From Vicinamibacterales bacterium (lineage in GTDB: Bacteria > Acidobacteriota > Vicinamibacteria > Vicinamibacterales > UBA8438), in the NCBI GenBank assembly GCA_965263195.1, contig OZ253664.1, forward strand, positions 1,763,949 to 1,827,948: 64,000 bases of DNA, read 5' to 3'. The stretch's first letter is position 1; every line of letters begins with the position of its first letter. A program made the translations under genes and the position numbers. The notes under the pieces were generated by a model that saw only the letters and a list, made by a program, of their open reading frames with translations, did not search any database and was not told where the DNA came from. This document shows, piece by piece, positions 3,065 through 41,784 of the stretch.

Positions 3065-3136
3065 CAGCGCGTGGTGAAACCCCGCGTCGCACCGAGACCG
3101 GTCGAATGCAGCGGGGCTTTTGCCACGGGCTGCTAG
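3061..3136. repeat. MITE/REP-like element, shortest form (two arms only, 76 bp imperfect palindrome)
   Basis: Sequence is CTAGCAGCGCGTGGTGAAACCCCGCGTCGCACCGAGACCGGTCGAATGCAGCGGGGCTTTTGCCACGGGCTGCTAG. The termini CTAGCAGC/GCTGCTAG are perfect inverted repeats. The same arms flank the longer copies at 12870, 14356 and 48052. Confidence 0.85.
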
Positions 3137-3784: not shown

Positions 3785-4216
3785 CTAGCCTCCCGCCGCT
3801 CCGCGCAGCTTGCGCTCGGTGATCAGTCCGATGTCCTCGATACCGGCCCGCTGCAGCCGGTCGAGCACGTTCATCACGTCGGCGTACCTGGCGCCCTGAT
3901 CGGCCTTGATCAGCACGATCCGCTCGAGCTTGCGGTCAAGCGCGCGCTGTACCGACGCCAGGAGCTGGCCGTCATTGGTGGGCTGGTTGTCCACGTAGAA
4001 CCGGCCGGAGGAATCCACGTGGAGCACCGTCTGCGAGTCGTTGTCCGCCTTTTCCACCGTGTTGGCCGCCTCCGGCAGGGCAACGAGCACACCCGCCTGC
4101 AGTAGCGGCGCAATCAACATGACGATGATCAGCAGCACCAGCATCACGTCAGCCAGCGGCGTTACGTTGATCTGCGAGTTCAGTCCGCCTGACTTGCCGC
4201 CTACATCCATCCCCAT
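3785..4216 (-). CDS. exbD: ExbD/TolR family biopolymer transport protein (second copy)
   Basis: 143 aa; QINVTPLADVMLVLLIIVMLIAPLL TM segment plus an ExbD-like C-terminal domain. Separated by 2 nt from the downstream exbD. Confidence 0.9.
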   Translation of the reverse strand: MGMDVGGKSGGLNSQINVTPLADVMLVLLIIVMLIAPLLQAGVLVALPEAANTVEKADNDSQTVLHVDSSGRFYVDNQPTNDGQLLASVQRALDRKLERIVLIKADQGARYADVMNVLDRLQRAGIEDIGLITERKLRGAAGG

Positions 4217-14355: not shown

Positions 14356-14649
14356 CTAGCAGTCTGTGGTGAAACCCCGCGTCGCACAAAGAACGGCGAG
14401 GCGCTCGTCCGACAAGGCGCGAGGAGGGAGCATATTCGAAGACATGTGACTTAGGAACAACGCAGTCAGGAAGGGGGACGACGAGCACTCAAGCAGTCGT
14501 CCCCCAAGCCGCACACAGTGCGCCTCGGCGGACACGGCGCGGGGCGAAGGGGTCCCCGCTAGCGGCCGCCGGGGGTTTAGGGCGCAGCCCCAAGTGGTAA
14601 TGCCGCAGCGCCGGTCGAATGCAGCGGGGCTTTTGCCACAGGCTGCTAG
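14356..14649. repeat. MITE/REP-like element, longest form (294 bp)
   Basis: Bounded by CTAGCAGTCTGTGGTGAAACCCCGCGTCGCAC and CCGGTCGAATGCAGCGGGGCTTTTGCCACAGGCTGCTAG. It contains the core, an extra perfect 10-bp hairpin (GGGGGACGAC..GTCGTCCCCC) and the GC module. It has the same orientation as the copy at 12870. Confidence 0.88.
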
Positions 14650-16859
14650 GGGTCGAACGGCTGCACGCCGTCCCAGACGCGGACGCGCAGCATCGCGTCG
14701 CCCGGTTGGATCTGATCCACGACCTCCATGCCGTCGACCACCCGGCCGAATACGGTGTACCGGCCGTCGAGCCGGGGTTGCGGCAACCGCGTGATGAAGA
14801 ACTGGCTGCCCCCGGTGTCCTGCCAGTCGAGCGCCATGCCGACCGTGCCGCGGAGAAACGGCAGCTGGTTTATTTCGTCCCGGATCGTGTAGCCGGGACC
14901 GCCCTCGCTGTCGCTGCGCGGATCTCCGCCCTGCACCACATAGTTACTCACGGCGCGATGGAACGTCAGGCCGTCGTAGTAGCCGCGACGCGCCAGCCGC
15001 ATGAAGTTGGCGGCAGTGAGCGGCGCTTCGAGCACGGCCAGCTCGATCTGAATCGTGCCCCGGGCAGTATCTATGTACACGTGCGGCGATACGCTCGGAA
15101 CAACGAGGTCGCGCGCACCGTAGTCCGTACCGCCGGTCGGCGCAGGTCTGATCCGGGCGCCGTGATCCATGCCGGGCACGAGGTCCTCCAGGCGTTGGAC
15201 AGCGCGGATCCGCACCGCCCAGTCGCGATCAGCGAGCGCAGTCGTCAGGATGTCGCGACCGCCTGCGCCGCCGATGGCGCCTGCGGCGTCGATGATTGCC
15301 GCACGCGCCAGGTACTCCGGATCTTCGGCGGCGGCGGCGTAAGCCTTGGCGAGCGCCTCGATCGCGTCCGGCGGCTGCACCACGCCGAGCAACGTGGCCG
15401 CGGTCTTCTTCACGACGACGTCGTCGTCCTCGAGGTGCTCGATCAGTACCGCCCCGGCTTCCGGCACCCCGAGACCGACCAGCGCCGAGAGGACCGCCGG
15501 CACAACCCTACGATCGGCGTCGTCCAGCATCCCGATCAGATACGGCCCCGCCACCTCCGGCCCCGCGTACACCAGTCCGTCGGCCAGCGCGACGCGCACG
15601 CGCCAGTCCGAATCCGGTTCGATTCCCGACAACACCAGCAGGAACATTTCCGCGTCCGCCTCAGCGAGTCCGCGCAGAGCGGCGGCGCGCATCAGCGGCC
15701 ACGGGTCCGACAGCAGCTCGACGAACACTTGTACGACGACCGGATCGGCGCGGCCAGCCAACGCCACGACCGTCTCGTAGCGCAGCATCGGATCGATGTC
15801 CCGCCGCACGACGAACTGCCGCAGCGTCTCGGTCGCCGCCGGCTCCCGGAATTGCGCCAGCGCCCGCAGCGCCGCCAGCAGGACGCGCCGGTCACGCCGC
15901 TCCGGATCCAGCAGCTCGATCAGCGGCGCGACGGCGGCCGGATCGCCCAGCGCGCCCAGTCCCCGCGCCGCCAGCGACACACCCACGCTGCCCTGCACAC
16001 CGACGAGCGTGCTGAGGGCCGGGAATGCCCGCGCGTCGTCAATCCGCGAGAGGACGTCGGCGACCGGCCACCACCAGATCACCGGCTGGCCGTTCGGCTG
16101 CAGCAGCGCGGCCGCCAGCGGCTCGAACGCGCGGAGCTCAGCCAGGGCATACAGTCCGAGCCGGAACGCCTCCACTTCCGGTGTCTGGGGATAGGAGAGA
16201 TCTTCCGGGTCAATCCCGTACGTCTCGATGATGTAGCGGCTTACCAGCTCGCGAATTGCATCCCGGGCGCCGTCCACGCCGAGCCGGCCCAGCGCCTCCG
16301 CCGCCCGCCCCTGCACGAGCGGCGAGGAATCCCGCAGCGCGAGCAGCAGCGGCTCGGCCGCCGCTTCGTCGCCGATCAGGCCGAGGGCGAACGCCGCCAT
16401 TTGGCGCACCTCCGGCTCCGGATCGTGCAGGGCCACCGCCAGCGGCGTGATCCCCTCGGAACGTCCAACCCGGCCGACCGCCAGCGCAGCGCGGCGGCGC
16501 ACGCGCGGCGCGTCATCGGCCAGCAGGTCGACGAGATCAGGTACCGGGCGCAGCGCGGCCGGCGGCGTCGCCGCGGGAGGCTCCGCGGCAGAGGATGTCT
16601 CGGCCGCCGCGGGGATCTCCTCGCGCGGCGGCGCGTCCGGATCGCGGAGCACACGCTGGTCTTCCAGGCGCAGGATCCAGCCCAGCTTCTCCTGGAGGGG
16701 GGGCGGGCCGACAGGAACCGCCGGGGGGGCCGCGCCGGCGCAGCCCGCGACTGCGGCAAGCAGGCCTACCCGGACCGCAAGCGACGTCGGTCGGAGCCGT
16801 GTCTGCGTCACGTCAAGCGGAGGATGGACGGCGGCAACCACCCGCCGTCGGCGCGCCAT
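14646..16859 (-). CDS. HEAT-repeat protein fused to a C-terminal cyclophilin-type peptidyl-prolyl isomerase; probable lipoprotein
   Basis: The C-terminus is cyclophilin-like (YYDGLTFHRAVSNYVVQGGDP..GTVGMALDWQDTGGSQFFIT..LDGRYTVFGRVVDGMEVVD). The preceding ~500 aa are HEAT/PBS-lyase-like repeats (repeated ..VR..AA.ALG..GD..A...L...L.D). The N-terminus reads LAVRVGLLAAVAGC, with lipobox VAGC. The start is uncertain: ATG 16859, GTG 16811 or the ORF-track 16889. The stop lies within the CTAG end of the repeat. Confidence 0.8.
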   Translation of the reverse strand: MARRRRVVAAVHPPLDVTQTRLRPTSLAVRVGLLAAVAGCAGAAPPAVPVGPPPLQEKLGWILRLEDQRVLRDPDAPPREEIPAAAETSSAAEPPAATPPAALRPVPDLVDLLADDAPRVRRRAALAVGRVGRSEGITPLAVALHDPEPEVRQMAAFALGLIGDEAAAEPLLLALRDSSPLVQGRAAEALGRLGVDGARDAIRELVSRYIIETYGIDPEDLSYPQTPEVEAFRLGLYALAELRAFEPLAAALLQPNGQPVIWWWPVADVLSRIDDARAFPALSTLVGVQGSVGVSLAARGLGALGDPAAVAPLIELLDPERRDRRVLLAALRALAQFREPAATETLRQFVVRRDIDPMLRYETVVALAGRADPVVVQVFVELLSDPWPLMRAAALRGLAEADAEMFLLVLSGIEPDSDWRVRVALADGLVYAGPEVAGPYLIGMLDDADRRVVPAVLSALVGLGVPEAGAVLIEHLEDDDVVVKKTAATLLGVVQPPDAIEALAKAYAAAAEDPEYLARAAIIDAAGAIGGAGGRDILTTALADRDWAVRIRAVQRLEDLVPGMDHGARIRPAPTGGTDYGARDLVVPSVSPHVYIDTARGTIQIELAVLEAPLTAANFMRLARRGYYDGLTFHRAVSNYVVQGGDPRSDSEGGPGYTIRDEINQLPFLRGTVGMALDWQDTGGSQFFITRLPQPRLDGRYTVFGRVVDGMEVVDQIQPGDAMLRVRVWDGVQPFDP

Positions 16860-16882
16860 GATAGCATGCGGGCCGCCGGTCC

Positions 16883-17605
16883 GTGGCACACGCCGGGCCG
16901 GCCGCTCTGCGGCTCGGGCCTGCCCCGCAGACTGCTATACTGCGAGGCACCTTGGACTTTCAGTATCTTGCCATCGAAGGTCCGATTGGCGCCGGCAAGA
17001 CAACCCTCGCCCGACATCTCGCACTCAGGCTCGACGCGACGACGGTCCTCGACCAGACCGACAATCCATTCGTCGCCGACCTGTACGCCGGCCGCCCCGG
17101 CGCGGCGTTCCAGGCGCAGCTGTTCTCACTGCTCGCGCGCCACCGCCAGCAGTCGATGCTGCGGCAGACGGATCTGTTCAATCAACTGGTCATTGCCGAC
17201 TACCTCTTCGACAAGGACAAGATCTACGCCTACCTCAATCTGGACGACAACGAGCTGTTCATCTACCAGCGGCTCTATGACCTGCTCGTACCGGAGCTCG
17301 TCACCCCGGACCTCGTCGTCTACCTCCAGGCGCCATCCGACCTCGTACGCCAGCGCGTGCGCCAGCGGCTGCAGCACGATTCGGACGCCGCTCCACTACC
17401 GGACGACACGTACCTCGGCGAGTTGAACGAGGCGTACAACCACTTCTTCTTCCACTACAACGCGACGCCCTTGCTGGTGGTCGAAACCTCGGAGTTCACC
17501 CTCGACTGGGACGCAGCCGCCCTGGACGATCTGATTCGGCAGCTACGCGATATGGGCCGCGGAACGCGCTATTACGTGCCGCGCACCGGGCCCAACCCGT
17601 CTTGA
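16883..17605 (+). CDS. deoxynucleoside kinase family protein
   Basis: P-loop YLAIEGPIGAGKTTLA and a dNK-like body (DYLFDKD..FIYQRLY..PDLVVYLQAP). The start is uncertain: the ORF track uses a GTG at 16883, and an in-frame TTG at 16952 sits just before the conserved N-terminus. Confidence 0.75.
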   Translation: MAHAGPAALRLGPAPQTAILRGTLDFQYLAIEGPIGAGKTTLARHLALRLDATTVLDQTDNPFVADLYAGRPGAAFQAQLFSLLARHRQQSMLRQTDLFNQLVIADYLFDKDKIYAYLNLDDNELFIYQRLYDLLVPELVTPDLVVYLQAPSDLVRQRVRQRLQHDSDAAPLPDDTYLGELNEAYNHFFFHYNATPLLVVETSEFTLDWDAAALDDLIRQLRDMGRGTRYYVPRTGPNPS

Positions 17606-26812: not shown

Positions 26813-27765
26813 ATGCGCACTGCCGCCCACATCCCCGCTTCGTTGCTCGATTCGCCGCAGTTGCCGACCGTGCGGGAGGTCGCCCTCTGGCGCCGGGAAC
26901 ACGGCAGCGGCGCGCTGCCGGGTGCTGTGCGGCGCGGGGACGGCGCCGCCTATCAGGAGGTCATCTGCCGTTCCGCACTCAACCGGGTGCAGGGTATGCC
27001 GTTCGCCTGGACGCTCAACCCGTATCGCGGCTGCACCCACGGCTGCCACTACTGCTTCGCGCGGCGGTATCAGTCGCAGCTCGAAATGGATGCGGGCGGC
27101 GAGTTCTCTTCCGTCATCCTGGTCAAGGTCAATTTTCCGGACGTGCTGCGGCGCGAGCTGATCCGCAAACCGCGGCCTGGCGAGCGGGCGGCATTCGGCA
27201 CGGCAACGGATCCGTATCAGCCTATCGAGGGAAGCTACCGGCTGACGCGGCGCAGCCTGGAAGCACTGGTCGAGCGTCCGATGCGCATCGACCTGGTCAC
27301 CCGCGGTCCGCTGGTCGTCCGTGACACCGACCTGCTTGTCGAACTGTCACGCAGGTTCGCCTGTACGGTCAGCATCAGCGTGCCGACCACGGACGAGGAG
27401 GCCTGGAAGCGTCTGGAGCCGGGCACGGCGCACCCGCTGCAACGGCTGCGCGCGCTGAGGACGCTGGCGGCCGCCGGCGTCGACGCCGGCGTGCTGATGG
27501 CGCCTATCGTGCCCGGCATCAGCTCGGCGCCGGGAAACACCCCACGGCGGGTTATGCGGAGCAGGTGCTGTCAATGCTGGGCGGGCTGCAAGCGCGCTTC
27601 GGACTCACGCGGCGGCCCTACAGGCGACCCGCTGCCGCCGCTGCGGGGGGCGGACGACCGGCACAGCCGACGTGGCGGCAGCGACGGCTCGACTGGAGCG
27701 ATTCGCCGCTTACGCGGGCTGGAGCAGACGCTCGATCCGCTGCTCGGTCGGCGGGTGCGTGCTGA
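26813..27765 (+). pseudogene. radical SAM protein (COG1533/SplB-like 'DNA photolyase-like' family), apparently frameshifted and internally shortened
   Basis: Frame A reads ..LNPYRGCTHGCHYCFARRY (the CxxxCxxC motif) ..GTATDPYQPIE..APIVPGISS and then degenerates into Arg/Cys-rich nonsense after about 27530. A plausible C-terminal piece (YAEQVLSMLGGLQARFGL) continues in a different frame (27565..27765). The 602-aa track ORF is an artefact that runs on as the antisense of htpX. Confidence 0.55.
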
Positions 27766-28574: not shown

Positions 28575-29841
28575 TCATTCTAGCCCAAGTTTAACAACGG
28601 CATAGTCAAGACGTTTTAGAATCAGTAGTTTACGCCGACGGGATGGCGCAAGTGGCACTACAAACGCGGGTCGACCCGGGAATGGGTCGGTCAGATGATC
28701 GTCTTGCGGGCGCAGGCCGAGCTCGGACTTGAGCGAGCGGAAGACGGCTTCGACGTCGGTGAGCGTGGTGTAGGTGCGCCACAAGGCGTCTTCGTCCCAG
28801 TCGGTCTCGCTGCTGCGCAGGCAGTAGACGCCGGGATGGGTGGCCATCGAGCCGTCATGAGGGCGGCGGGTCCAGGTGACGGCGACGGCCTTCTCGCCGG
28901 CCTCGTCGGGGGCGACGGCGATCTGGTAGTGCGCGGCGACGCGGGAGTGTTGTGCCTTCAAGCGCCCGATACGCTGCCAGATGCACGGTCTGCTTCGACT
29001 GCGTGCGGACCGACACGGCGGCATCGGCATCGAACTGCCGGTGGCGTTCCCGGCTGACGACCAGGTAGCGGTAGCCGTGCTGGCGCAACCACGTGATGCA
29101 GGCGTCTCGGTGGCGACGCCGCGGTCCATCACCACCAGGGCGCCGGCCGGCGCGTGAAGCGCCTCGAGCATGCCGGCCAGCGTCCGGTGCTCGCGGACGT
29201 TGCCGGCGAAGAGTTGCGAGCGGCGCACGAAGCCGCTGGCGTCGAGCATGAGCCCCAGGGTCAACAACGGGCAGTCACTGCGCTTCTCTTTCGAGTGCCC
29301 GCGCTGTGCCTGCGGTTGCTCGCTCGCCTCGCCCTCGAAATAGGTGTTGGTCAGGTCGTAGAGGGTCACGGTCGGCTGCAGGTCGAACAGCCCCAGGGCC
29401 CGGTCGAACAGGTGCGCCTCGACCGCCTCGCGATGCTTCACCAACGCGTCCGAGGCGCGGTACAGCTGCATCGCGCTGACCGTCTCGAAGTCGACGCCGA
29501 GCAACTCTCCGAGGCCGCTGCACGTCTGTCGGTCCGGCGGCCGTCCCGTCCCCCGGTGCGCCGCGGGCGACCAACTGCGCGGCGATGCGCTGCGCCTCGT
29601 GTTCGACGGCGGACGGGCAATCGGCCACCAGGGGCGCTTGGCCGGACAAGACGTCGTCGATGCGGGTGCACAACAGCGGCCACTGTGCCCGGGGGATGTC
29701 GAAGTGGCGCCCGAAATTGAGCAGCGTGCGCTGACGGACGGTGTTTCCGACGCGCTCGGAGTGGACGAGGCGATGGGAGAAGTAGGGCTGTCCGTCCTCG
29801 GTGCGGCGGGTTTGGGTGCGCCGAACGAACATACGCCCCAC
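28575..29841 (-). pseudogene. IS1634-family DDE transposase, multiple frameshifts and a C-terminal deletion
   Basis: Three fragments are visible:
- N-terminal piece in the 29275..29841 ORF: MGRMFVRRTQTRRTEDGQPYFSHRLVHSERVGNTVRQRTLLNFGRHF.
- Middle piece in the 28575..29897 ORF: LYDLTNTYFEGEA..KEKRSDCPLLTLGLMLDASGF..VMDRGVATE.
- A third frame (28855..29088): LRQHGYRYLVVSRE.
The C-terminus breaks off after ..LGLRPQDDHL. Confidence 0.8.
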
Positions 29842-30007
29842 GATAGCGGGTGGACCTGTTCCAGCGAAACCCGGCCTATGCGATTATGGCACTGCATCGT
29901 GCGCGACCAAACCCCGAACCTGTGGAATCAATAACTTGCAGAGATGAGACGCTCGAAATGCCGCCCAAATCGGCAAAATGCCCGGCCATCTTGTTAAACA
30001 TGGGCTA
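28580..30007 (-). mobile_element. decayed IS1634-like (IS4-superfamily) insertion sequence with intact terminal inverted repeats
   Basis: Left end is CTAGCCCAAGTTTAACAA (28580-28597). The right end, CTTGTTAAACATGGGCTAG (29989-30007), reverse-complements to CTAGCCCATGTTTAACAAG, matching 17 of 18 positions. The interior holds transposase fragments in at least 3 frames. Confidence 0.8.
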
Positions 30008-30016
30008 GCAGTCCGT

Positions 30017-31171
30017 CTAGCCGTCCGCGGCGATGCGCCGCAGCAATCCGGCGACCAACGCGGCGCGCCACGGCATCTGGCCCACGTCGACATGCTCGTG
30101 GAGCGCGTGCGCACCGTCGCCGACCGCCCCCAGGCCGTCGAGCGTGGGCACGCCGAGCGCCGCGGTGAAGTTGCCGTCCGACCCGCCGCCGGCCGCACCC
30201 TCCGCCAGGTCGCGGCCGAGCGCGCGCGCCACCTCGCGGGCCAGGCCGTACAGGCGCGCCACGCCCGCGGTGCGCTCCAGCGGCGGCCGGCTGAAGCCGC
30301 CGCCGAGGACAAGGGCGGTCCGCCGGTCGCGCGACTGCAACTGCCGCATGGCCACCTCGACGCGGCGCGCGTCCTCTGCGGATTGGACGCGCACGTCCAC
30401 CACCGCGCGCGCATGCTCGGCAACCACGTTCGGCCGGCTGCCGCCCGCGACCAGGCCGACGTTCACGGTGACGCCGCGCGCCGGATCGGCGAGCGCGTCA
30501 AGCGCGCCAATCTGCGCCGCCAACTCGGAGATCGCGCTCGCGCCCTTCTCCGGCTCGAGGCCGGCGTGCGACGCAACGCCGCGGACCAGCAATTCGAATT
30601 CGCCGGAGCCCTTGCGGCAGGTCTTCAGGGCGCCCCCGGGGAGCGCCGGCTCCAGGACGCAGACCGCGTCGGAGCGGCGCGCTTCCGCCTCAACAAGCGC
30701 CCGCGACGCACCGCTCCCGCGCTCCTCATCGGCGGTCAGCAGCAGCACCACGCGTCGGCCCAGGTCCACCTCCGGCCGCGTAACCGCCGCGGCGGCCAGC
30801 ATGCCGATGGCAATCCCGGCCTTCATGTCGAAAACGCCCGGGCCGTACAAGCGGTCGCCGTCCCGTCGAATCGGCATCCGCTCTATCTGCCCGACCGGCC
30901 AGACGGTGTCGATGTGACCGAGCAGCAGTATCTGGCCGGCGCCGCTGCCGAACGTGGCGCGCAGGTGGTCGCCGGTCGTACCCGACGGCACGGCGTCAAC
31001 TGCGGCGTCCAACGCCTCCATGCGCTTGGCGACTTCGCGGCCGCAACGGTCCACCGCCGCCTTGTCCGGTGTCGGTGACTCCAGATTGACCAGCGCCGTC
31101 GTCGTCTCGACCAGCCAGTCCCGTCGCGACGTGCAGAACGCGAGCAGCCCGCTCATCTCATCATTTGACAT
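30017..31171 (-). CDS. M20-family metallopeptidase (carboxypeptidase G2 / acetylornithine deacetylase-like)
   Basis: LLLGHIDTVWP, GPGVFDMKAG and LLLTADEERGS are M20 metal-site motifs. The ATG at 31171 (MSNDEMSGLLAF..) is preferred over the track start at 31279. Confidence 0.85.
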   Translation of the reverse strand: MSNDEMSGLLAFCTSRRDWLVETTTALVNLESPTPDKAAVDRCGREVAKRMEALDAAVDAVPSGTTGDHLRATFGSGAGQILLLGHIDTVWPVGQIERMPIRRDGDRLYGPGVFDMKAGIAIGMLAAAAVTRPEVDLGRRVVLLLTADEERGSGASRALVEAEARRSDAVCVLEPALPGGALKTCRKGSGEFELLVRGVASHAGLEPEKGASAISELAAQIGALDALADPARGVTVNVGLVAGGSRPNVVAEHARAVVDVRVQSAEDARRVEVAMRQLQSRDRRTALVLGGGFSRPPLERTAGVARLYGLAREVARALGRDLAEGAAGGGSDGNFTAALGVPTLDGLGAVGDGAHALHEHVDVGQMPWRAALVAGLLRRIAADG

Positions 31172-31226
31172 GGACTCTTCCCTGCACCGGCCGGCGGGGT
31201 TGCGCCGCGTTGCGGCCGCCCGCATA

Positions 31227-31724
31227 ATGGAATTCGTGCCTCCGAAGCGCGCGGTCGCCGCCCTGTCGCTGTTCTGCATCTGCCTGACGCCGGCAGCGCC
31301 GGCGTGGTCGGCTCAGCAGGATGCAGTGGCTGCCGATCAGGCCGCGGCCGAGCAGTCGCCGACCGCGGAGACGCTCGGCTTCCCGATCTACCCGAGTGCC
31401 CGGTTCCTCCGATCGTACGACGCCGGGCAGGGTCAGCGTTACTACCTGTTCGGTACCGACTCCACATTTGTGGACATGGTCAACTACTATCGCCTGTTGT
31501 TGGAAGAGCGTGGCGACCGTGTCTTCGATGCGCCGGCCACGCACATCTTCGAAGTGGGGCGTTTTCGTGAGGAGAGCATGGCGTTCCCGCCCGGCGTGAC
31601 CATCAAGGACTATACCTGGAACGGCGCGGAAGGCTACCTCCATGCGGGGGGCGAAGCCGGGCCGGAGCGGTACGGCACCATCATCCAGATCGTTCCGGCG
31701 CCGCCAACCCCGCCAGACCGCTAG
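31227..31724 (+). CDS. hypothetical secreted protein
   Basis: The ATG at 31227 gives MEFVPPKRAVAALSLFCICLTPAAPAWSAQQ, a signal peptide with an AWS|A cleavage site. The protein is 165 aa with no family I recognise. The stop TAG is part of a CTAG repeat terminus. Confidence 0.6.
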   Translation: MEFVPPKRAVAALSLFCICLTPAAPAWSAQQDAVAADQAAAEQSPTAETLGFPIYPSARFLRSYDAGQGQRYYLFGTDSTFVDMVNYYRLLLEERGDRVFDAPATHIFEVGRFREESMAFPPGVTIKDYTWNGAEGYLHAGGEAGPERYGTIIQIVPAPPTPPDR

Positions 31725-31816: not shown

Positions 31817-34567
31817 TCAGGACAGAACGCCCTTGTGCAACGCGTAGCGGACGGCGTCGTTCCGTCTGGAGACGCCGGTCCTCCGGTATATCTTCTTCAG
31901 GTGATAACGTACGCCTTCGTCGCTGATCCCAAGGTGCTCCGCGATTACCTTGTTCCGGTGGCCGCGGCGCACCTCCGCCAGTATTTCCAGCTCCCGCGAC
32001 GTGAATTCGGGCGCAACCGTGGCGGACCGTTTCCCCAGACTCGCCAGTATGGATTCGACGGTCTCTTGGAGGTCTCCGTGCGGGTTTCCGGTTAGATATT
32101 GTTGCAGCACGGTCAGGCTCACATCCCGGTGGCGTTCCAGCGGCCTGATGTAGTCAACGTCACGCGCACGGCTGAGGAATTCGACCAATCGCTTGAGCGC
32201 CAGCTCCGGTTGTCTGGCGTGGTGGGCAACGACCATCGACAACGCCAGGCTCCGCATGACGGTGCGCATCAGACCGCGCGCCGAGGCCGTGCGGTATATG
32301 GCGTTCGCGAGCGCGCCCGCGGCGTCGAAATCACCCTTCCCGACCAGCAACCGCACGCGCGCGCATGACAGCGCCTCCATCGTCCGCCAGGACCGGGTGT
32401 CCAGGTCCAACAGCTCCGCGTCGGCATGGGGCAGACCGTAGTTCCGCCACGCGTACCCCGCCTCGTCAGACTGTCCGGTCTCCGCCAGATAGGACGCCAA
32501 CAGCGCGGCCAGGTAGTGCGAAACGTGCCCGATGCCCGCTGCCCGCGCCTCGTCGATCGTGTGCGTCAGGAGCTTCACGACCGCTTGGCCGTCATATTGT
32601 GCGAACGTCAATTCCGCGTGAACTGCGACTGCCGCGGCATAGATGTCGATCCATCCGCTCCGCAGCTCGGTCATGCCTCGCAGCGTACGCTGCTGAAGGG
32701 CTTTCTTGCGGTTCCGCTCCAGATCGAGCTCGATGGTCACGACGTCGGTGCTGGCCGAAAGGTAGGGATCGGACGGAAAGTATTTGCGGGCACCCTGCCG
32801 AGCACGCCTGTACCAATCGGCGGCATCCCGCGGCCTTCCCTGCGCCATCGCGACCATCCCCAGGGAGATACTTATGTAGATGTCGCCATACGGCGCATCC
32901 TCGCCGAAGTATGCCTGCGCCTGCATCCCGTGCCGGCGACTCTCCTCGAAGCGGGCGCGTCCGTAGCTGGCACCGCAGCGCAGGGCGTGCCGGACGGCGG
33001 GGTTGAACCAGGAGGACTCGCCATCGCCAGGGACGGTCTCGTCGTCCGGCAGTTTCGCGTCGAACTCAGTTTGCTGCAGCCGGCACGTGCCGCCCAACAG
33101 TGCGACTTGGGTGAAGACTCCGTCGAAGGACAACGCCTCAACATCGCCGCCGTCCCGGTCCCGCGTGAAGCCCTCTGTTCTGCGCGCGACGTCTTCGTAC
33201 AGGGCGGCGGCCTTATCGAACTTGAAGGCCAGCTTGAGGAAAACGCAGTGGAGAAGCGCCAACCGCGGATAGGCCTCTATGCTCTCCGGCGTCAGGAACC
33301 GAGCGGCGGAAACGACCTGCGCCAACCCCCCACGCACCCAAAGCCCGACCACGCCGACACTCTCGATCAGCTCCCCCACAAGCCGAACGTCACCTGCCGC
33401 GTTCGCGTGCCGCCACGCCGGCGTGAGCTGGCTGCGGCGCGTCAGCGCCCGCGCGATCCGGGTGTGCAGGGTCCGTTTGCGAGCCGGATCCTCCACCGCG
33501 AAGCGCGCGACGCAATATTCCCGAACGAGCGGGTGCAAGAGCTGCACGGTGTCGTTGTCGTCGCTGGGCAACAAGAGACCGTCCAGCGATGACAACGCAG
33601 CTATCCGCAGGCGGGCGTCACTCGATCCCAATACCTCGTCCACGAGATCCGCCTCGATCCAATCGAAGACCGCCAGATCAAGCAGGAACGTGCGATCCGC
33701 CGCCGACAGATCGCGCAGCAGGCGCACGCCGACAAAGTTCGACGTCAGGCTTGCGGCGTCCGCCCCCGGCTGCCCAGCCTCCCGGACCTGCATGTTGCGA
33801 TAGACCACCAGTGCAACCGGCCAGCCGGCTGTCCGCTTCTCAACCGCCGCCAACTTGCGCCGCGACAGGTCGCCGTGGAAGAACTGTGCGATCTCATGCT
33901 TGGAAAAACGAAACGCACGCGGCCCCACGATGATGGCGGAGCCGTCGAGAATATGTGCGGCCAGATCCAGCCCTGGATTGGATCGGAATGCCGCAGCAAA
34001 GTGCAGGTTCGGCGGCGCGCGCTTCAACAGCAGATCGATCAACCCCACCGCGTGGCTCGGCAGCCGCTCCACTTCATCGAGTACCAGCAGGCACGGCGCA
34101 GCATGCCGCTCGATGGCGCGGGCCAGCATCCCGATCTGACACGCAATCGGCGAAGACAACCACGCACCCTGAGCAGCCATGACCGCGAGATCCAGCCCGG
34201 CATGTTCGAGTGCGTAGGCGATGTAGCTCCCGAACAAGTCCGGCGTATCGTCCTCGTCCAGCGTGAGCCATCCGACGACGAGCCCCTGATCCTTCTTCCT
34301 GCGGCTGACATCCGCCAGCACGGTCGTTTTGCCGAACCCGGCTGGTGCCTGCAGCGCGGTGAGCCGTCGCTGCAGCGCCGAATCGATTTGTTCCAGTAGC
34401 AGCGGACGGCGCAGGTATTCCGGCGGCGGCGGCGGCGCGACAACCTTCGCCTTCAACAACCAGGGCGGGAGAACTCCGGGAACGGAGGACTTACCAACGC
34501 TGGCGGCCCCAGTGGCATCTGACAGCATTCCGGTGGCGATCTGCCGGGCTACGGAATATGACGGCAT
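31817..34567 (-). CDS. LuxR-family large ATP-binding (LAL/MalT-like STAND) transcriptional regulator, paralog 1
   Basis: 916 aa with Walker A LQAPAGFGKTTVL and Walker B CLLVLDEVERL. A long helical/TPR-like sensor region is followed by a C-terminal LuxR HTH (SRELEILAEVRRGHRNKVIAEHLGISDEGVRYHLKKIYRRTGVSRRNDAV). Confidence 0.88.
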   Translation of the reverse strand: MPSYSVARQIATGMLSDATGAASVGKSSVPGVLPPWLLKAKVVAPPPPPEYLRRPLLLEQIDSALQRRLTALQAPAGFGKTTVLADVSRRKKDQGLVVGWLTLDEDDTPDLFGSYIAYALEHAGLDLAVMAAQGAWLSSPIACQIGMLARAIERHAAPCLLVLDEVERLPSHAVGLIDLLLKRAPPNLHFAAAFRSNPGLDLAAHILDGSAIIVGPRAFRFSKHEIAQFFHGDLSRRKLAAVEKRTAGWPVALVVYRNMQVREAGQPGADAASLTSNFVGVRLLRDLSAADRTFLLDLAVFDWIEADLVDEVLGSSDARLRIAALSSLDGLLLPSDDNDTVQLLHPLVREYCVARFAVEDPARKRTLHTRIARALTRRSQLTPAWRHANAAGDVRLVGELIESVGVVGLWVRGGLAQVVSAARFLTPESIEAYPRLALLHCVFLKLAFKFDKAAALYEDVARRTEGFTRDRDGGDVEALSFDGVFTQVALLGGTCRLQQTEFDAKLPDDETVPGDGESSWFNPAVRHALRCGASYGRARFEESRRHGMQAQAYFGEDAPYGDIYISISLGMVAMAQGRPRDAADWYRRARQGARKYFPSDPYLSASTDVVTIELDLERNRKKALQQRTLRGMTELRSGWIDIYAAAVAVHAELTFAQYDGQAVVKLLTHTIDEARAAGIGHVSHYLAALLASYLAETGQSDEAGYAWRNYGLPHADAELLDLDTRSWRTMEALSCARVRLLVGKGDFDAAGALANAIYRTASARGLMRTVMRSLALSMVVAHHARQPELALKRLVEFLSRARDVDYIRPLERHRDVSLTVLQQYLTGNPHGDLQETVESILASLGKRSATVAPEFTSRELEILAEVRRGHRNKVIAEHLGISDEGVRYHLKKIYRRTGVSRRNDAVRYALHKGVLS

Positions 34568-34788
34568 CTACCTATTCGGACGCTTCCACCCCATCCTCGG
34601 GGTTCAACCGTTCTGCAGATCGCGCAATCGAATCGACTGCCGCCGCCGCCCGGTCCTCCGTCACGCGCCGTGAGGCCCGCGCCGGAATGCGACCGGCGGG
34701 CTGCTGGATGGCGGGTTGGTGTCGCGGTGGTGGAAGAGCCGCTCATTGGTGGGTCGGACATGGAGCGGCAGTGCGAGAGCGTGGAGGG

Positions 34789-34843
34789 CTAGCAGTCCGT
34801 CGCGACACTCCGCATCGCACCGAGAGCGGCCAGGTGAGGCGCC
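34789..34843. repeat. solo left arm of the MITE/REP-like family
   Basis: CTAGCAGTCCGTCGCGACACTCCGCATCGCACCGAGAGCGGCCAGGTGAGGCGCC aligns to the left arm plus the adjacent GGCGAGGCGC segment of the copies at 14356 and 48052. No matching right arm was seen. Confidence 0.5.
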
Positions 34844-34978
34844 AACCAACGATTTCGCGGGCGTCGTGGACCTGGGAGTTGGTATCCCACACGCGTCGGT
34901 TGCGCCTGGCTTGCGTTTATCACCAGCCCGATCCTCTCAACAGATCGAGACTTCGAATGACCCGGGGCGGTTCAGCTG

Positions 34979-37762
34979 TCAGGACAGCATCCCCTTGGCC
35001 TGCGCGTAACGTACGGCGTCGAGCCGTCTGGAGACGCCTGTCTTGCGGTAGATCTTCTTCAGGTGGTAGCGAACGCCTTCGTCGGTGATGCCCAGGCGTT
35101 CGGCGATTTCCTTGTTGCGGCGACCGTGGCGGACCTCCATCAGCACCTCCAGCTCGCGCGACGAGAAACCCTGTGCCTTGGCGGCGGCCGGTTCGGCGAG
35201 GTGTGCGAGCGCAGCCTCGGCAGTCTCTCGCAGCTCCGCGTCGAGATCCCCGGCGAGCAGTTGTCGCAGGACGGTCGCGCTTACGTCGCCGTGGCGCACG
35301 AGCGGCCGGATGTAGTCCGCTTCGCGCAACCGGCGGAGGAATTCGACGAGCCATTTGACGGCCCGATCCGGCTGTGCGGCATGGTGGGCGACAACCATTG
35401 ACAGCGCGAGGCTCCGCATGGCCGTGCGTACCAGACCATGCGCCGACGCCGTGCGATTCACATGGCTGGCGAGCTCACCGGCCGCGTCGAGGTCTCCCTG
35501 CGCGATCAACAACCGGACGCGCGCACAACACAGCGCCTCCATCGTCCGCCAGGAATGGCCGTCGAGATCGAGCAGCTCCGCTGCACTGCAGGGCAGCGCG
35601 GCGTTCCGCCACACGTTTCCAGCCTCCTCGGAGCGGCCGATCTCAACCAGGTAGGAAGCCAGTAGCGCCGACAAATAGTGCAACAGGTTGTCATTGCCCA
35701 TCGCCCGCGCGCCGTCAATCCTGCGCGTCAGCAGTGTGACGACCGCGTGGCTGTCGCTCTGTTCGAACGTCAATTCGGCGCGCACGGCCACGGTCGCGGC
35801 ATAGAGGTCGATCCATCCGCGCATCTCGGTCATGCCTTGCAGCGTCCGCTGTTGAATGGCTTTGCCGCGGTTCCGCTCGAGATCGAGTTCGATCGTCATG
35901 ACATCGATGTTTACCGAGAGGTAGGGGTCGGAGGGAAAATACTTCCTGGCGCCCTGCCGTGCGCGGCGGTACCACTCGGTGGCCTCTCGCACACGTCCTT
36001 GCGCCATGGCGGCCATACCGAGGCAAATGCTCACGAATATGCTGCCGTACCGCGCGTCTTCCCCGAAACGGGCCCGTGCCTGCATGCCATGCTGGCGGGC
36101 CTCCTCGAAACGGCCGCGCTCGTAGCAGGCAACGCAGCACACCATGTGCCGGGCACCCAGCCTGAACGACGCAAATTCGTTGTCGCCGGGGGTGGTCACG
36201 TTGGCGGGGAAGGCCGTATCGAACTCGCCGTGCTCCGATCGGCACGGCCCCCCCGCCAATACCAACTCCGTGAAGACCTGGTCGACGGACAGTGCAGCTG
36301 CATCGCCGCCATCCCGGTCGCGCGTGAACCCGTCGGTCTTCCGCGCTACCACCTCGTACAGCGTGGCCGCCTCGTCGAACTTCGACAACAGGTTGAGAAA
36401 GACGCAGCGCAGGAGCGCGAGCCGCGGATAACGTTCCGTAATCTCCGGAGTCAGGAACTGCCCGGCCGAAACTACCCGCACCAGCCCCTCCCGCAACCAC
36501 AACCTGGCTACGCCGACCTCTTCGATGAGTCGGCCCACCAGCCCGCTGTCACCTGCCTCGCTGGCGTGACGGCAGGCCGGCGTCAATTGACCCCGGCGCG
36601 CCAGCGCCAGCGCAATCCGCGTATGCAGCGACCGCTTGCGGACCGGGTATTCGACCGCGAACCGCTCGACGCAATACTCCCGAACGAGCGGGTGCAGGCG
36701 CCGCACGGTGCTGTCATGATCCATAGGCAACAGCAGGCCGTCGAGAGACGACAGCGTGGCGATCCGCAGGCGCGCATCGCTCGATCCGAGCACCTCGTCC
36801 ACCAGATCCGCCTCGATCCAGTCGAAGACCGCCAGATCGAGCAGGAATGTGCGGTCCTCGGCCGAGAGATCGCGCAGCAACCGCACGCCGATGAAGTTCG
36901 AGGTGAGTCTCGCGGTGTCCGCTCCGGGTTGTCCCACCTCGCCGGACCGCATGTTGCGGTAGACCATCAACGCAACCGGCCAGCCAGCCGTACGCTCCGC
37001 GACCACCGCCAGCTTGCGTCGCGAAAGATCTCCGTCGAAGAACCGGGCGATCTCGGGTTTCGAGAAACGGAACTCCTGTGCACTGACGATGACCGCCGAG
37101 CCCTCGAGAACGTGCGGCGCCAGGTCCAGTCCCGGATTGGACCGGAACGCCAGGGCAAAATGGAGATTGGGCGGCGCGCGCTTCACCAGCAGGTCTATCA
37201 GCGCCACGGTGCTGGCCGGCAGACGATCGACCTCGTCGAGTACCAGCAGGCACGCCGCCGCATGCAACTCGATCGCGCGCGCCAGCATCCCGATCTGATG
37301 CGCAATCGGCGACGAAGACCAGCCGTCATGGCTGGCCAGGCTCGCGAGGTCCAGCCCGGCGTGCTCGAACGCATACGCGATGTAGCTCCCGAATACGTTC
37401 GGCACATCGTCCTCGTCCAACGACAACCATCCGACGACGAGCCCCTGCTCTTTCTTCCTGCGGCTCACGTCGGCCAGCACGGTCGTCTTGCCGAATCCGG
37501 CCGGCGCCTGCAGCGCGGTGACCCGCCGGTCGAGCACCGCGTCGATTTGTTGCAGCAGCGACGAACGGTAGACATATCCCGGCGTCGCTGCCGGCACCAT
37601 CACCTTCGCCTTCAGCAACCAGGGCGGGACAACGCTGGAAACAGGGCCTTCACGAAGGGCGCCGGCGGCAGCAGTGTCTGACGGTTCTCCGGAAGCAGCT
37701 CGTCGAGCTGTACGGGAAGACGAGGTACGTTTGAGCCGACCCGTCGTCTCATCCACATCCAA
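34979..37762 (-). CDS. LuxR-family large ATP-binding (LAL/MalT-like STAND) transcriptional regulator, paralog 2
   Basis: 927 aa, collinear with paralog 1 over its full length; I estimate roughly 70% amino-acid identity by eye. It has the same Walker A/B and LuxR HTH (SRELEVLMEVRHGRRNKEIAERLGITDEGVRYHLKKIYRKTGVSRRLDAV). The start (TTG at 37762) is uncertain. Confidence 0.88.
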   Translation of the reverse strand: MDVDETTGRLKRTSSSRTARRAASGEPSDTAAAGALREGPVSSVVPPWLLKAKVMVPAATPGYVYRSSLLQQIDAVLDRRVTALQAPAGFGKTTVLADVSRRKKEQGLVVGWLSLDEDDVPNVFGSYIAYAFEHAGLDLASLASHDGWSSSPIAHQIGMLARAIELHAAACLLVLDEVDRLPASTVALIDLLVKRAPPNLHFALAFRSNPGLDLAPHVLEGSAVIVSAQEFRFSKPEIARFFDGDLSRRKLAVVAERTAGWPVALMVYRNMRSGEVGQPGADTARLTSNFIGVRLLRDLSAEDRTFLLDLAVFDWIEADLVDEVLGSSDARLRIATLSSLDGLLLPMDHDSTVRRLHPLVREYCVERFAVEYPVRKRSLHTRIALALARRGQLTPACRHASEAGDSGLVGRLIEEVGVARLWLREGLVRVVSAGQFLTPEITERYPRLALLRCVFLNLLSKFDEAATLYEVVARKTDGFTRDRDGGDAAALSVDQVFTELVLAGGPCRSEHGEFDTAFPANVTTPGDNEFASFRLGARHMVCCVACYERGRFEEARQHGMQARARFGEDARYGSIFVSICLGMAAMAQGRVREATEWYRRARQGARKYFPSDPYLSVNIDVMTIELDLERNRGKAIQQRTLQGMTEMRGWIDLYAATVAVRAELTFEQSDSHAVVTLLTRRIDGARAMGNDNLLHYLSALLASYLVEIGRSEEAGNVWRNAALPCSAAELLDLDGHSWRTMEALCCARVRLLIAQGDLDAAGELASHVNRTASAHGLVRTAMRSLALSMVVAHHAAQPDRAVKWLVEFLRRLREADYIRPLVRHGDVSATVLRQLLAGDLDAELRETAEAALAHLAEPAAAKAQGFSSRELEVLMEVRHGRRNKEIAERLGITDEGVRYHLKKIYRKTGVSRRLDAVRYAQAKGMLS

Positions 37763-38184
37763 TCGGTCTACGCCTCGTACGATCTACTCAACTGTAAACG
37801 CCAAATCGTCCCGCTGCTGGGCGCCCCGGCGGCTGCGCGCGACGCCATTCGCACCTGGCGGGGTCGGCACGCCATGCAGCCGCGAGACCTGTCGTGCCCA
37901 TGACTTTCTCCGGTGCCAGCAGGGACGTGGTGGCCTGTGACGATGTCGTCGACAGAGTGGAAGCAGCAAAGAGCCAGGAAACCCTTTTCCGGCGCGGTCC
38001 CGACTCACATCCGCTCGGCGACATCCCGTCGCCTGCACGAGTCTTGACCGTAGCGAGCACCGCCGACAAGGTAGCGGCGAGCCAAAAGCCGGTAGCCGGC
38101 GACTCGGCCAGTCGTATTCACAAACTACTGATACGTTGCGCTCAACGCGGTGGGAATTGGGACGACGGTAGCGCGCTAGCGCGG

Positions 38185-39906
<1,722 letters not shown>

Positions 39907-40019
39907 TCACGCGGACGGTGTAGCTGCAAGCGGCGACTTCGGCGCCGGGCCGCAACCGGCGGCACTGACTATATTACGCCTGCACCCGCGGGCGCGGCGG
40001 GCACGGTGCACTACGGCAC

Positions 40020-40030
40020 TATAGTAGAAT
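40020..40030 (+). promoter_or_regulatory. -10-like elements (TATAGT / TAGAAT) immediately upstream of rpiB
   Basis: TATAGTAGAAT occupies 40020-40030. TAGAAT ends 6 nt before the rpiB ATG at 40037, so a start site at or next to the A of the ATG is plausible. No good -35 was seen. Confidence 0.35.
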
Positions 40031-40036
40031 TCGACG

Positions 40037-40513
40037 ATGCGGATCGCGCTGGGAGCCGACCATGCCGGCGTCGATCTCAAGACGCGGGTCAAGCAGTTCC
40101 TCGACCGCCAGCGCCTCGATCACGAGGACTTCGGACCGCACACAACCGAATCGGTCGACTACCCGGACTACGCCGCCCGCGTGGCCCACAGCGTCGCTTC
40201 AGGATCGTGCGATCGGGGCGTTCTGATCTGCGGCAGCGGGATCGGTATGGCAATCGCCGCCAACAAGGTCCGGGGCGTCCGCGCGGCGCCGGTCACCACG
40301 CCGGACGCGGCGCGTCTGGCGCGCAGGCACAACGACGCCAACGTGCTGGCGCTCGGCGCCCGCACCCTTGAGGTGGATGACGCGCTCGCCATCGTCGAGA
40401 CATTCCTGGCCGAACCGTTCGAGGGCGGGCGGCACCAGCGCCGGGTGGACAAGATTTCCACGGCCGAAGCGAGCCTCGTCGATCGGCCGCACAGGACGGA
40501 TACTGCCCCATGA
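40037..40513 (+). CDS. rpiB: ribose-5-phosphate isomerase B
   Basis: 158 aa; [15 protein letters not shown].., [38 protein letters not shown]. Confidence 0.92.
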
Positions 40514-41784
40514 CGCACGCGCTGGAAGCATCCGCCAGCGACCGCCTGCGGACTGCCGCCGAGATCGACCCCGAGATCGCCAGGGCGGTTCGCGACGAGA
40601 TCAACCGCCAGAACACCGGTCTGGAGCTGATTGCCTCGGAGAACTTCGTCAGCGCCGCCGTGCTCGAGACGCTCGGATCGGTGCTCACCAACAAGTACGC
40701 GGAGGGCTATCCCGGCCGCCGCTACTACGGCGGATGCGAATTCGTCGACGTAGCCGAATCGCTCGCCATCGAGCGGGCGAAGGCGCTCTTCGGCGCCGAG
40801 CACGCCAACGTCCAGCCGCATTCGGGTGCGCAGGCGAACATGGCGGCGTATTTCGCGCTGGTCAAGCCGGGCGACACGGTGCTCGGCATGAACCTGGCGC
40901 ACGGCGGGCATCTGACGCACGGCCACCCGCTCAACTTCTCGGGGCAGCTGTACGATATCGTGCCGTACGGCGTGCGGCGGGACGACGAGCGGATCGATTA
41001 CGACGAGCTCGAGCGGCTGGCGCAGGAGCGCAAGCCGCGGATGATCATGGTCGGCGCCAGCGCCTATCCGCGCGTGATCGACTTCGGGCGCATCGGCCGG
41101 GCCGCGCAGCAGGTGGGCGCCGCGATGGTCACCGACATGGCGCATATCGCCGGGCTGGTCGCCACCGGCGTCCACCCGAGCCCGGTGCCCTACTCCGACA
41201 TCGTCACGACCACGACCCACAAGACGCTGCGGGGACCGCGCGGCGGGCTGGCGCTCTGCCGCGCCGACCACGCGAAGAACCTCAACCGCGCGCTGTTCCC
41301 CGGCGTGCAGGGCGGGCCGCTGATGCACGTCATCGCCGCCAAGGCGGTCTGCCTGAAGGAAGCGGCCGAGACGGGCTTCGCGGCGTACCAGCGGCAGGTC
41401 GTGGCCAACGCGCAGCGCCTCGCCGCGGCACTGGCCGCCAGCGGCTTTCGACTGGTCAGCGGGGGCACCGACAATCACCTGCTGCTCGTCGACGTCTTCT
41501 CGCAGGGGCTGACCGGCAAGGTGGCCGAGGCGGCGCTGGGACGCGCCGGCATCACGGCCAACAAGAACGCCATTCCGTTCGACGAGAACCCCCCGATGGT
41601 GGCGAGCGGCATACGCCTCGGCACGCCTGCGCTCACCACCCGCGGCATGACCGAACTCGAAATGGATGGGATCGGCGAGCTGATCGCGCGCGTGCTGGCC
41701 GCGCCCGACGACGACCGGGTGGCGCGCATGGTGCGCGGCGAGGTCGAGGCGCTCTGCCGCAAGTTTCCGCTGTATCCGGACTAG
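40510..41784 (+). CDS. glyA: serine hydroxymethyltransferase
   Basis: 424 aa; [39 protein letters not shown] (the PLP lysine motif). Overlaps the rpiB stop by 4 nt. Confidence 0.96.

Follow-up and report, generated by a model that had tools for sequence, protein, structure and literature searches.

Two old MalT-type STAND regulator lineages, apparently stacked beside thiC in a Vicinamibacterales genome, and their candidate operator

Two adjacent genes on the minus strand, here called regA and regB, lie behind thiC in a 64,000-nucleotide stretch of a Vicinamibacterales (Acidobacteriota) genome (GenBank assembly GCA_965263195.1, contig OZ253664.1, positions 1,763,949 to 1,827,948; hereafter the window, numbered from its first nucleotide). 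Both encode predicted transcription activators of the MalT type, that is, STAND ATPases with a LuxR-type DNA-binding domain. Our reading is that the two genes are old lineages of one recombining regulator cassette that have become stacked at a single chromosomal address, that regB lies behind the ancestral promoter region, and that the pentamer CTACC is the operator box of the family. Taken as a whole, we regard this combination as fairly probable.

To our knowledge, MalT-type STAND activators are well understood only in Escherichia coli, a few actinomycetes and mycobacteria. Soils are rich in acidobacteria, and our literature search found no paper on acidobacterial MalT-type regulators. The window DNA has about 68% G+C, and its best genome matches are metagenome-assembled genomes of Vicinamibacterales. 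The related loci used for comparison fall into three groups. L001, L002, L004, L005, L006, L057 and L058-L061 are syntenic loci, with thiC and an M20 peptidase gene as landmarks, for which the context was obtained and which carry one regulator each (L001 and L002 were examined for flanking genes only). L003 and L062 carry the regB-regA pair, L062 being the window's own strain from a different sample. L007, L008 and L063 hold paralogs of the family at other, independent loci and are the only three such contexts used to test the operator box.

Two regulators of a MalT-type subfamily

The features of the two genes are as follows; the domain limits are approximate.

regA, 31817-34567, minus strand: predicted MalT-type STAND transcription activator of 916 amino acids, ATG start
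regA residues 1-34: unstructured N-terminus
regA residues ~46-360, nucleotides (nt) 34432-33488: nucleotide-binding oligomerisation domain (NOD), with Walker A at 77-82 and Walker B at 160-165
regA residues ~361-845, nt 33487-32033: arm and helical-repeat sensor
regA residues 855-916, nt 32005-31820: LuxR/GerE helix-turn-helix domain (HTH)
regB, 34979-37762, minus strand: 927 amino acids counted from a TTG start, architecture as in regA
regB residues 866-927, nt 35167-34982: HTH

A sequence-only reading of this DNA had described two same-strand open reading frames (ORFs) of 916 and 927 amino acids as collinear paralogs about 70% identical. Coordinates, strand, lengths and relationship all proved exact: BLASTP aligns the proteins end to end with 643 identities in 914 positions (70%) and a single one-residue gap. 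The long near-identical nucleotide stretches that it also reported do not exist, the overall DNA identity being 74%, the best 120-nt windows reaching 86-87% and the longest exact run 25 nt.

The assignment of both proteins to the MalT-like, LuxR-family STAND regulators, already made from the sequence, is borne out by the profile searches that had been proposed, by the match to a solved MalT structure and by the predicted fold. The Walker A (GFGKTT) and Walker B (LLVLDE) motifs are found in regA and regB alike, and Pfam GerE (PF00196) scores 44.4 and 48.2 bits in the two copies at a cut-off of 23.5. TPR_MalT reaches 38-41 bits, slightly under its cut-off of 45, and AAA_16, AAA_22, NACHT and nSTAND5 match weakly. 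PF25873 (WHD_MalT) is annotated on the near-identical proteins P0001 and P0007 and on all 120 homologs among the matches listed. The NCBIfam equivalog for MalT proper (NF003420), the mal-gene regulator that responds to maltotriose, gives 183.3 and 184.2 bits, against a cut-off of 537. With phmmer, the sole solved relative by sequence, besides short HTH matches, is the MalT NOD structure 8BOB (3e-19), and the alignment with MalT spans residues 45-401.

An AlphaFold2 model of regA, based on an alignment of 44 homologs, has a mean pLDDT of 79 and predicts a Rossmann-type nucleotide-binding domain (NBD), helical (HD) and winged-helix (WHD) domains, an all-helical repeat over residues 427-845 (pLDDT mostly 85-97) and a four-helix HTH. 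In the fold search of this model with Foldseek, 8BOB ranked first (6e-13, target TM-score 0.58) and the archaeal TPR-STAND protein 6MFV second (6e-12); MalT domain III (1HZ4) was matched with an E-value of 1.7e-5 and a target TM-score of 0.64. The recognition helix GVRYHLKxIYRK is the same in regA and regB and varies little or not at all among 44 homologs with 52-77% identity to regA, and the sensor is the part in which the two regulators have diverged most.

The ratio of non-synonymous to synonymous change (dN/dS, by the Nei-Gojobori method) is 0.24 between regA and regB. Against the L003 counterparts it is 0.33 for regB and 0.41 for regA, the latter a value based on few substitutions. In the comparison of regA with L003, every domain except the first 45 codons lies below 1; the NOD and the HTH each have 0.36. 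Positive selection was considered and rejected: the ratio never exceeds 1 and stays below 0.9 in each computable 60-codon window of eight allele pairs. Within the sensor it is highest, at about 0.4-0.57, at residues 461-550 and 670-760 in most pairs. Since selection is purifying and both ORFs are uninterrupted in three assemblies, both copies appear to be functional. On the combined sequence and model evidence, we take regA and regB to be functional MalT-type STAND transcription activators of a so far uncharacterised subfamily, and not MalT orthologs. The G+C content at third codon positions (GC3) of the two genes is 0.79-0.80, the lowest among the long window genes (mean 0.865 ± 0.029) except for a transposase, which would agree with weak expression or foreign ancestry. 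The subfamily is both multi-copy and abundant; those members that have a name, titled 'LuxR C-terminal-related transcriptional regulator [Acidobacteriota bacterium]', and its located genomes belong to Acidobacteriota and Vicinamibacterales.

Age, exchange and stacking of the two lineages

A regulator stands between thiC and the small-protein and M20 genes in all nine distinct related loci examined, as a single copy in each. Besides the window, the regB-regA pair is known only in L003 (97-98% identical) and L062 (99.5-99.9%). A single regulator gene is the ancestral state at this address.

The synonymous distance (dS) between regA and regB is 0.82, while that of each copy to its counterpart in L003 is 0.03-0.04. 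Protein identity between regA and the single-copy orthologs is 64-78%, and 85% to P0002; the corresponding values for regB are lower by 4-8 points in every case. Neighbour joining of 65 family members puts regB, together with its own 90% cluster, outside the clade of regA and all the syntenic orthologs. Quartet site-pattern counts also place regB outside, with 26.4 informative sites against 13.8 and 6.4 for the alternatives. A search with regB among 5.8 billion proteins returned no regB-type protein outside regB's own 90% cluster. Two processes that might distort these relationships were tried and rejected. Gene conversion between the copies is not indicated, as regA shares 5 of its 56 private residues with regB (9%), compared with 0-12% for other alleles, and there are no long identical runs; nor is regB a mosaic, as its sliding-window identity is uniformly intermediate over the full length, with no switch point. 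Judged by these comparisons, regA and regB are old, independent lineages of one regulator gene, and not a fresh local duplication. The phylogeny suggested earlier for dating the duplication speaks against a recent date.

The borders of the segment that contains the two genes are formed by conserved neighbours:

thiC, 38185-39894, minus strand: conserved left border of the cassette; identity to L004 falls from its stop codon
Small-protein gene, 31227-31724, plus strand: 165 amino acids with a signal peptide and without a Pfam family; convergent on regA; conserved right border of the cassette
M20 peptidase gene, 30017-31183, minus strand: start probably near 31183, with the ORF open to 31279; conserved, divergent from the small-protein gene

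Against L004, the left and right flanks are 96.1% and 96.8% identical, whereas the regulators reach 77-81% at the DNA level and the spacers are largely unalignable; the drop in identity runs from the thiC stop codon to the regA stop codon. Eight flank genes (including thiC, rpiB, glyA, the dinG-like gene, the small-protein gene, M20 and M48) have a dS of 0.07-0.23 to L004, and regA has 0.60. Against L003 the pattern is reversed, with flanks of 93.9% (left) and 92.1% (right), a cassette of 97.3-98.4% from the thiC stop to M20, and spacers of 97.3-97.4%. Regulator dS is 0.6-0.9 towards all relatives, regardless of flank divergence, which ranges from 0.07 to 0.8. Because the regulators have diverged amid near-identical flanks in L004 and the cassette exceeds its flanks in identity to L003, whole-cassette exchange does occur. 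We infer that the segment from thiC to the small-protein gene is a replaceable cassette in which old regulator lineages are exchanged through homologous recombination in the flanks. The mismatch between cassette and flanks towards L004, and its reverse towards L003, is an uncommon population pattern for a transcription factor.

A more far-reaching idea, which we consider a long shot, is that the slot after thiC is a balanced, frequency-dependent 'allelic' sensor locus, in which old MalT-like lineages with different sensor specificities are retained in the population and shuffled by recombination between strains and species. If this were true, the signals read by the sensors would be strain-specific biotic ones, molecules from kin, competitors or phages, and the genes activated in response would encode variable surface adhesins or exoproteins. 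Two stacked alleles would then broaden recognition, giving a transcription-factor counterpart of NLR-type (NOD-like receptor) recognition in bacteria, and the locus would be comparable to the pherotype loci of quorum sensing or to polymorphic NLR loci in eukaryotes.

How the two lineages came to be stacked is best approached from the 5' ends of the genes and the spacers before them:

thiC-regB spacer, 37763-38184, minus strand: predicted ancestral control region, with a conserved segment common to the thiC-regulator spacer of all single-copy loci
regB-regA spacer, 34568-34978, minus strand: 411 bp, with one GGTAG immediately in front of the regA ATG (34572-34568) and, at ~34790-34834, a dispersed repeat in degenerate form

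The two spacers have no detectable mutual similarity, as had been noted from the sequence, and no homolog of the regB-regA spacer was found except in L003 and L062. regB keeps the ancestral N-terminal extension of about 45 amino acids (LDVDETTGRLKRTS...) that is common to single-copy orthologs; a TTG or GTG lies about 45 codons before the PxWLLKAK motif in seven of eight loci, L004 having instead TTG at codons -48 and -50. In regA, DNA homology to the closest allele (L058, 85% protein identity) begins at codon ~34, at window position 34468, and a TAG stop codon immediately precedes the ATG. The first 33 codons, like the 411-bp spacer, are without a homolog outside L003 and L062. From these comparisons, regB sits behind the ancestral promoter region, and the body of regA is the ortholog of the single-copy genes with a replaced 5' end. 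This replaces the earlier explanation of the dissimilar spacers, namely that a duplication had covered the coding region and not the control region: at a dS of 0.82 the lineages are old, and one of them has retained the ancestral 5' end that the other has lost.

Of two routes to the stack, we favour the insertion of a foreign thiC-block-regB segment in front of a resident regA, because cassette exchange demonstrably occurs and no other regB-type gene is known. The other route, an ancient in-situ tandem duplication that most lineages collapsed to chimeras (regB promoter and N-terminus joined to a regA body) and that the window lineage kept intact, is the strongest competitor, although we rate it as unlikely. 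It has the merit of explaining why single-copy loci combine a regB-like 5' region (block and N-terminal extension) with a regA-like body. Unequal crossing-over readily collapses tandem paralogs, and the regB block is an outlier among the blocks in the same way as regB is basal in the protein tree. Its cost is a series of independent 5'-end collapses (in L004, L001, L057, L058 and the L002/L005/L006 group), after which no second regB-type gene would be left among 5.8 billion proteins, and it leaves aside the whole-cassette exchange that is seen in the L004 identity drop and in the L003 cassette.

It is also conceivable, and in our view still less likely, that one copy, most probably regA, is silenced or decaying, having lost its promoter and N-terminus and not yet degraded. 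regA is without the ancestral control block and extension, the spacer before it has no box array or promoter-like site, it has the higher dN/dS of the two against L003, and its GC3 is the lowest in the window bar the transposase of an insertion sequence (IS). Against such decay stand a 916-codon ORF that is uninterrupted in three assemblies, dN/dS below 1 in all domains after the first 45 codons, and the preserved Walker motifs and recognition helix; moreover, regA may be transcribed by read-through from regB or from a non-consensus promoter.

Recent local duplication with rapid divergence of one copy, which was implicit in the sequence-only reading, agrees with the adjacency, common strand and full collinearity of the genes, and is nevertheless very improbable. 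The dS between the copies far exceeds that to L003, and every single-copy ortholog is closer to regA than regB is. Furthermore, regB is nearer to the outgroup paralogs than regA is (61.7% vs 58.7% identity), which acceleration after a recent duplication could not produce. An assembly artefact from a collapsed or expanded repeat, a concern raised earlier for one of the copies, can practically be dismissed, as the copies are just 74% identical in DNA and the arrangement recurs in three assemblies from different samples, L003 and L062 being independent of the window.

The conserved block and its CTACC boxes

The thiC-regB spacer contains a block that has been conserved where the coding sequences have not:

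Conserved non-coding block, 38039-38129, minus strand: 46 of ~105 aligned columns invariant across loci near synonymous saturation
CTACC box 0, 38167-38171, minus strand: lies upstream of box 1 with a 76-nt separation that is conserved in L004, L057 and L058
Inverted AGTAG, 38129-38125: in the block
CTACC box 1, 38095-38091: in the block
CTACC box 2, 38074-38070: abuts a -35-like TTGTCG at 38069-38064
-10-like AAGACT, 38045-38040: after an 18-nt spacer, within the invariant GTCAAGACTC at 38048-38039

Along the gene strand, the array thus consists of box 0, the inverted AGTAG 42 nt further on, box 1 after another 34 nt and, after 21 nt, box 2 abutting TTGTCG. The intergenic DNA of the window (5.8 kb) holds only four CTACC or GGTAG words, three of them in the thiC-regB spacer and the fourth immediately ahead of the regA ATG. 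There is no second CTACC-N15-17-CTACC pair in the window and no intergenic CTACC beyond the two regulator upstream regions.

The same words recur with family members elsewhere. L057 has 11 intergenic occurrences, each of them either in front of the regulator or within a 312-bp gap between the regulator and an adhesin-like cassette, and this gap repeats the block layout as CCGACTACC-N-GACGCTCCCTTGGC. At the paralog locus L007, whose context is unrelated, there is the palindrome CTACCGGTAG and the identical 10-mer GCTACCTTGT, followed by TTGTGG (-35-like), 18 nt and TAATGT (-10-like). At L063, 564 nt contain six boxes, against an expectation of 0.76 (P about 1e-4), and more clusters are found in the neighbouring intergenic regions. 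From enrichment, conservation and geometry, CTACC, often in the form (G/A)CTACC(G/T), is probably the operator box of the family, and one shared box fits a recognition helix that is near-invariant in the family and identical in regA and regB. A wider search was unsuccessful: 48 of 48 matches to the pattern CTACCTTGTC-N14-18-GTCAAGAC in JGI metagenomes were due to chance: their G+C content was wrong, an extended block was missing, and neither a regulator nor thiC was close by.

The block might instead be an RNA element, either a small RNA derived from the thiC 3' untranslated region or a structured 5' leader of the regulator mRNA, which we hold to be improbable. The block does follow thiC on the same strand, its distance from the two genes varying, and the window has a short hairpin with a T-run at 38100-38088. 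That small hairpin is broken in several loci, however, and RNAalifold found no supporting covariation on either strand, the covariation term being unfavourable and the conserved pairs never varying, so we treat the block as a DNA-level element. What is conserved is a set of discrete invariant words with 21-nt phasing, and the same words occur upstream of paralogs at unrelated loci and before the adhesin-like cassette. Rfam has no match.

Several points weigh against our combined reading. The motif was derived from the block at the thiC locus after the data had been seen, and was then tried on three paralog contexts, in one of which (L008) there are no CTACC boxes. Five-base words cluster by chance in coding DNA (5 in 250 nt near window position 17400), and two CTACC words occur in the sequence that codes for the conserved recognition helix. 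Both hexamers, the -35-like and the -10-like one, are weak, and a sigma-70 consensus scan of the region found nothing; regA is without a recognisable promoter, and its dN/dS against L003 depends on few substitutions, as noted above. The phylogeny is based on neighbour joining and site patterns rather than maximum likelihood, with synonymous distances of about 0.8 that are close to saturation, and the stack may have arisen through ancient tandem duplication with repeated loss as well as through insertion of a foreign allele.

The fragment of ~135 bp at 38039-38172, with its phased CTACC boxes, is a concrete and cheap predicted binding target, and a family-wide candidate operator could be used for predicting regulons in Vicinamibacterales genomes.

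Neighbourhood, proposed mechanism and known systems

In gene-strand order the window carries thiC, regB, regA, the small-protein gene, M20, an IS element, an M48 peptidase gene, a disrupted radical-SAM gene and a GT4 glycosyltransferase gene, and on the far side of thiC lies a housekeeping region with rpiB, glyA, a DinG-like helicase gene, lepA and citrate synthase. Syntenic relatives keep the order thiC, regulator, small protein (opposite strand), M20, M48, radical SAM and GT4. No polyketide synthase, nonribosomal peptide synthetase or tailoring genes are found among the window neighbours (thiC, rpiB, glyA, the dinG-like helicase, peptidases and glycosyltransferases), and no genes for maltodextrin uptake or catabolism in the window or in any retrieved locus with a member of the family. 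The small-protein and M20 start codons are only 14-55 nt apart, and the gap between them is free of boxes. The earlier statement that there are no obvious target genes holds within the 64-kb window. A comparison of ortholog neighbourhoods, which had also been suggested, finds no adjoining defined pathway and the same thiC-M20 site at nine distinct loci.

The following features belong to the IS element:

IS element, 28580-30008: 18-nt terminal inverted repeats CTAGCCCAAGTTTAACAA / TTGTTAAACATGGGCTAG
IS transposase ORF, 28575-29897, minus strand: 440 amino acids, uninterrupted, weak DDE_Tnp_1 match

The element lies between M48 and M20, at the right edge of the 97-98% segment shared with L003. 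As it is absent from the close relatives L003 and L004, it is a recent, strain-specific insertion, and an intact one. thiC, the small secreted protein and M20 had been correctly named as neighbours from the sequence; the 'IS remnant' listed with them is no remnant, given its inverted repeats and uninterrupted transposase ORF.

Some further observations concern the surroundings of the cassette. The radical-SAM gene (26813-27723, plus strand) has a 155-bp deletion relative to L003 (15739-15894 there), which alters the frame after residue 242; the gene encodes 349-371 amino acids in all relatives, and the window copy is probably a pseudogene. A dispersed intergenic repeat of about 45 nt (CTCGGTGCGACGCGGGGTTTCACCAC..GACTGCTAG) occurs at 3071-3096 and 14366-14391 and, in degenerate form, at ~34790-34834, all on the minus strand. 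It is also present in L001, L002, L003, L004 and L057. Its position is 145-255 nt downstream of same-strand genes. Zero copies are expected by chance and Rfam has no match; it could be an element like the REP (repetitive extragenic palindromic) or MITE (miniature inverted-repeat transposable element) sequences, or a 3' element. L003 has an insertion of ~230 bp carrying this repeat between rpiB and glyA (3838-4114 there), where in the window (40468-40515) the genes overlap by 4 nt. Upstream of thiC, no thiamine pyrophosphate (TPP) riboswitch was found in 39895-40036 (Rfam gathering score or E <= 1), which is unusual for a bacterial thiC; this thiC-rpiB stretch is among the least conserved between close relatives (83-91% identity). 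Elsewhere in the window, 14646-16889 (minus strand) encodes a 747-amino-acid protein that combines six HEAT-repeat matches with a C-terminal cyclophilin-type peptidyl-prolyl isomerase, an unusual combination.

The proposed mechanism is modelled on E. coli MalT, whose resting form is an ADP-bound, autoinhibited monomer. Binding of the ligand at the sensor opens the NOD, which is followed by ATP-dependent oligomerisation and, through it, by stabilisation of the C-terminal domains for binding to DNA (PMC10427625, PMC4381067, PMC6468293). By analogy, regA and regB would rest as ADP-bound, autoinhibited monomers until a ligand binds the helical-repeat sensor of each regulator, whereupon the NOD would open, exchange ADP for ATP and oligomerise. 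The arrayed LuxR HTH domains could then bind the repeated short boxes beside the weak promoter and recruit RNA polymerase. The array between thiC and regB would most likely give positive autoregulation of regB. As the recognition helix is identical in the two regulators and the sensor is their most diverged part, it is probable that each responds to a signal of its own and that both act through one set of boxes, either separately or in mixed oligomers. As the window has no other box array, any regulon would lie elsewhere in the genome, or the system may be restricted to autoregulation here.

Leads on targets come from the relatives. Behind the single regulator of L057 and of L004, on its strand, stands a fragmented set of genes for proteins with Calx-beta, LapA-like, cadherin-like and Big_9 repeats:

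Adhesin-like gene set, L057 12874-18576 (4 ORFs) and L004 12920-16051 (more degraded): includes a 477-amino-acid C-terminal piece without a Pfam family

In L004, the boxes have been lost alongside the degradation of this set, and in the window the set is absent. The paralog in L063 is surrounded by HemolysinCabind (RTX-like), LRR and FG-GAP proteins, that in L007 stands among amidohydrolase, peptidase and amino-acid catabolism genes, and that in L008 lies in a mobile-element context with reverse transcriptase and AlpA. Because box arrays in relatives precede genes for large secreted or surface repeat proteins, our best guess, a weak one, is that such proteins are the targets.

Among known systems, E. 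coli MalT, which activates the maltose regulon and is the prototype of the STAND transcription factors, is the closest in architecture. The N-loop, NBD-HD-WHD (together the NOD), arm, SUPR/TPR-like sensor and LuxR/GerE HTH follow each other in the same order, and the conserved PxWLLKAKV segment of the regulators aligns with the MalT N-loop. The predicted control region also resembles MalT-dependent promoters in having a series of short boxes of which the nearest to the promoter adjoins a poor -35. The differences are that identity over the NOD is only ~21%, that no mal genes lie near regA and regB, that regB and its orthologs have the additional N-terminal extension of ~45 amino acids, and that the candidate CTACC box is unrelated to the MalT box.

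The large ATP-binding LuxR-type regulators (LALs) of actinomycetes, such as PikD, RapH, GdmRI/RII and NysRI/RIII, are alike in overall size and in the layout from P-loop to LuxR domain, and tandem LAL paralogs are known from polyene and ansamycin gene clusters. In contrast to these proteins, whose genes sit inside the biosynthetic cluster that they control, regA and regB stand in a housekeeping context that is syntenic across the order. Mycobacterial IniR (Rv0339c), a multimeric, trehalose-responsive MalT-like STAND protein that directly activates iniBAC, likewise has an ATPase domain, a sensor like MalT domain III and a LuxR-type HTH (PMC5760070). No close sequence relationship with regA and regB is detectable. 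The IniR gene adjoins its target operon, whereas regA and regB are without an adjacent target in the window.

The archaeal STAND protein PH0952 (PDB 6MFV), which has a TPR sensor, matches the regA fold over NOD and sensor, and thereby supports an autoinhibited NOD-arm-TPR arrangement (PMC6468293); with 11% identity in the fold alignment, it is not close in sequence. The antiviral STAND proteins of the Avs/bNACHT type share the combination of NOD and repeat sensor, with weak fold matches to Avs4 and Avs5, and a locus that is hyper-variable between close strains. Their effectors are nucleases, proteases or SIR2 domains, unlike the GerE HTH of regA and regB. The two genes moreover appear to lie in a conserved housekeeping neighbourhood rather than in a defence island, with dN/dS below 0.9 in the computable 60-codon windows; of the paralogs, that in L008 does have a mobile-element context. 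Membership in a defence system was rejected, as PADLOC gave nothing beyond weak HTH-level matches with E > 1e-3. The likeness to NLR proteins suggested by the sequence-only reading accordingly extends to the architecture and not to the defence profiles, and it is with the MalT-type transcription activators that regA and regB share the order of their domains from N-loop to HTH.

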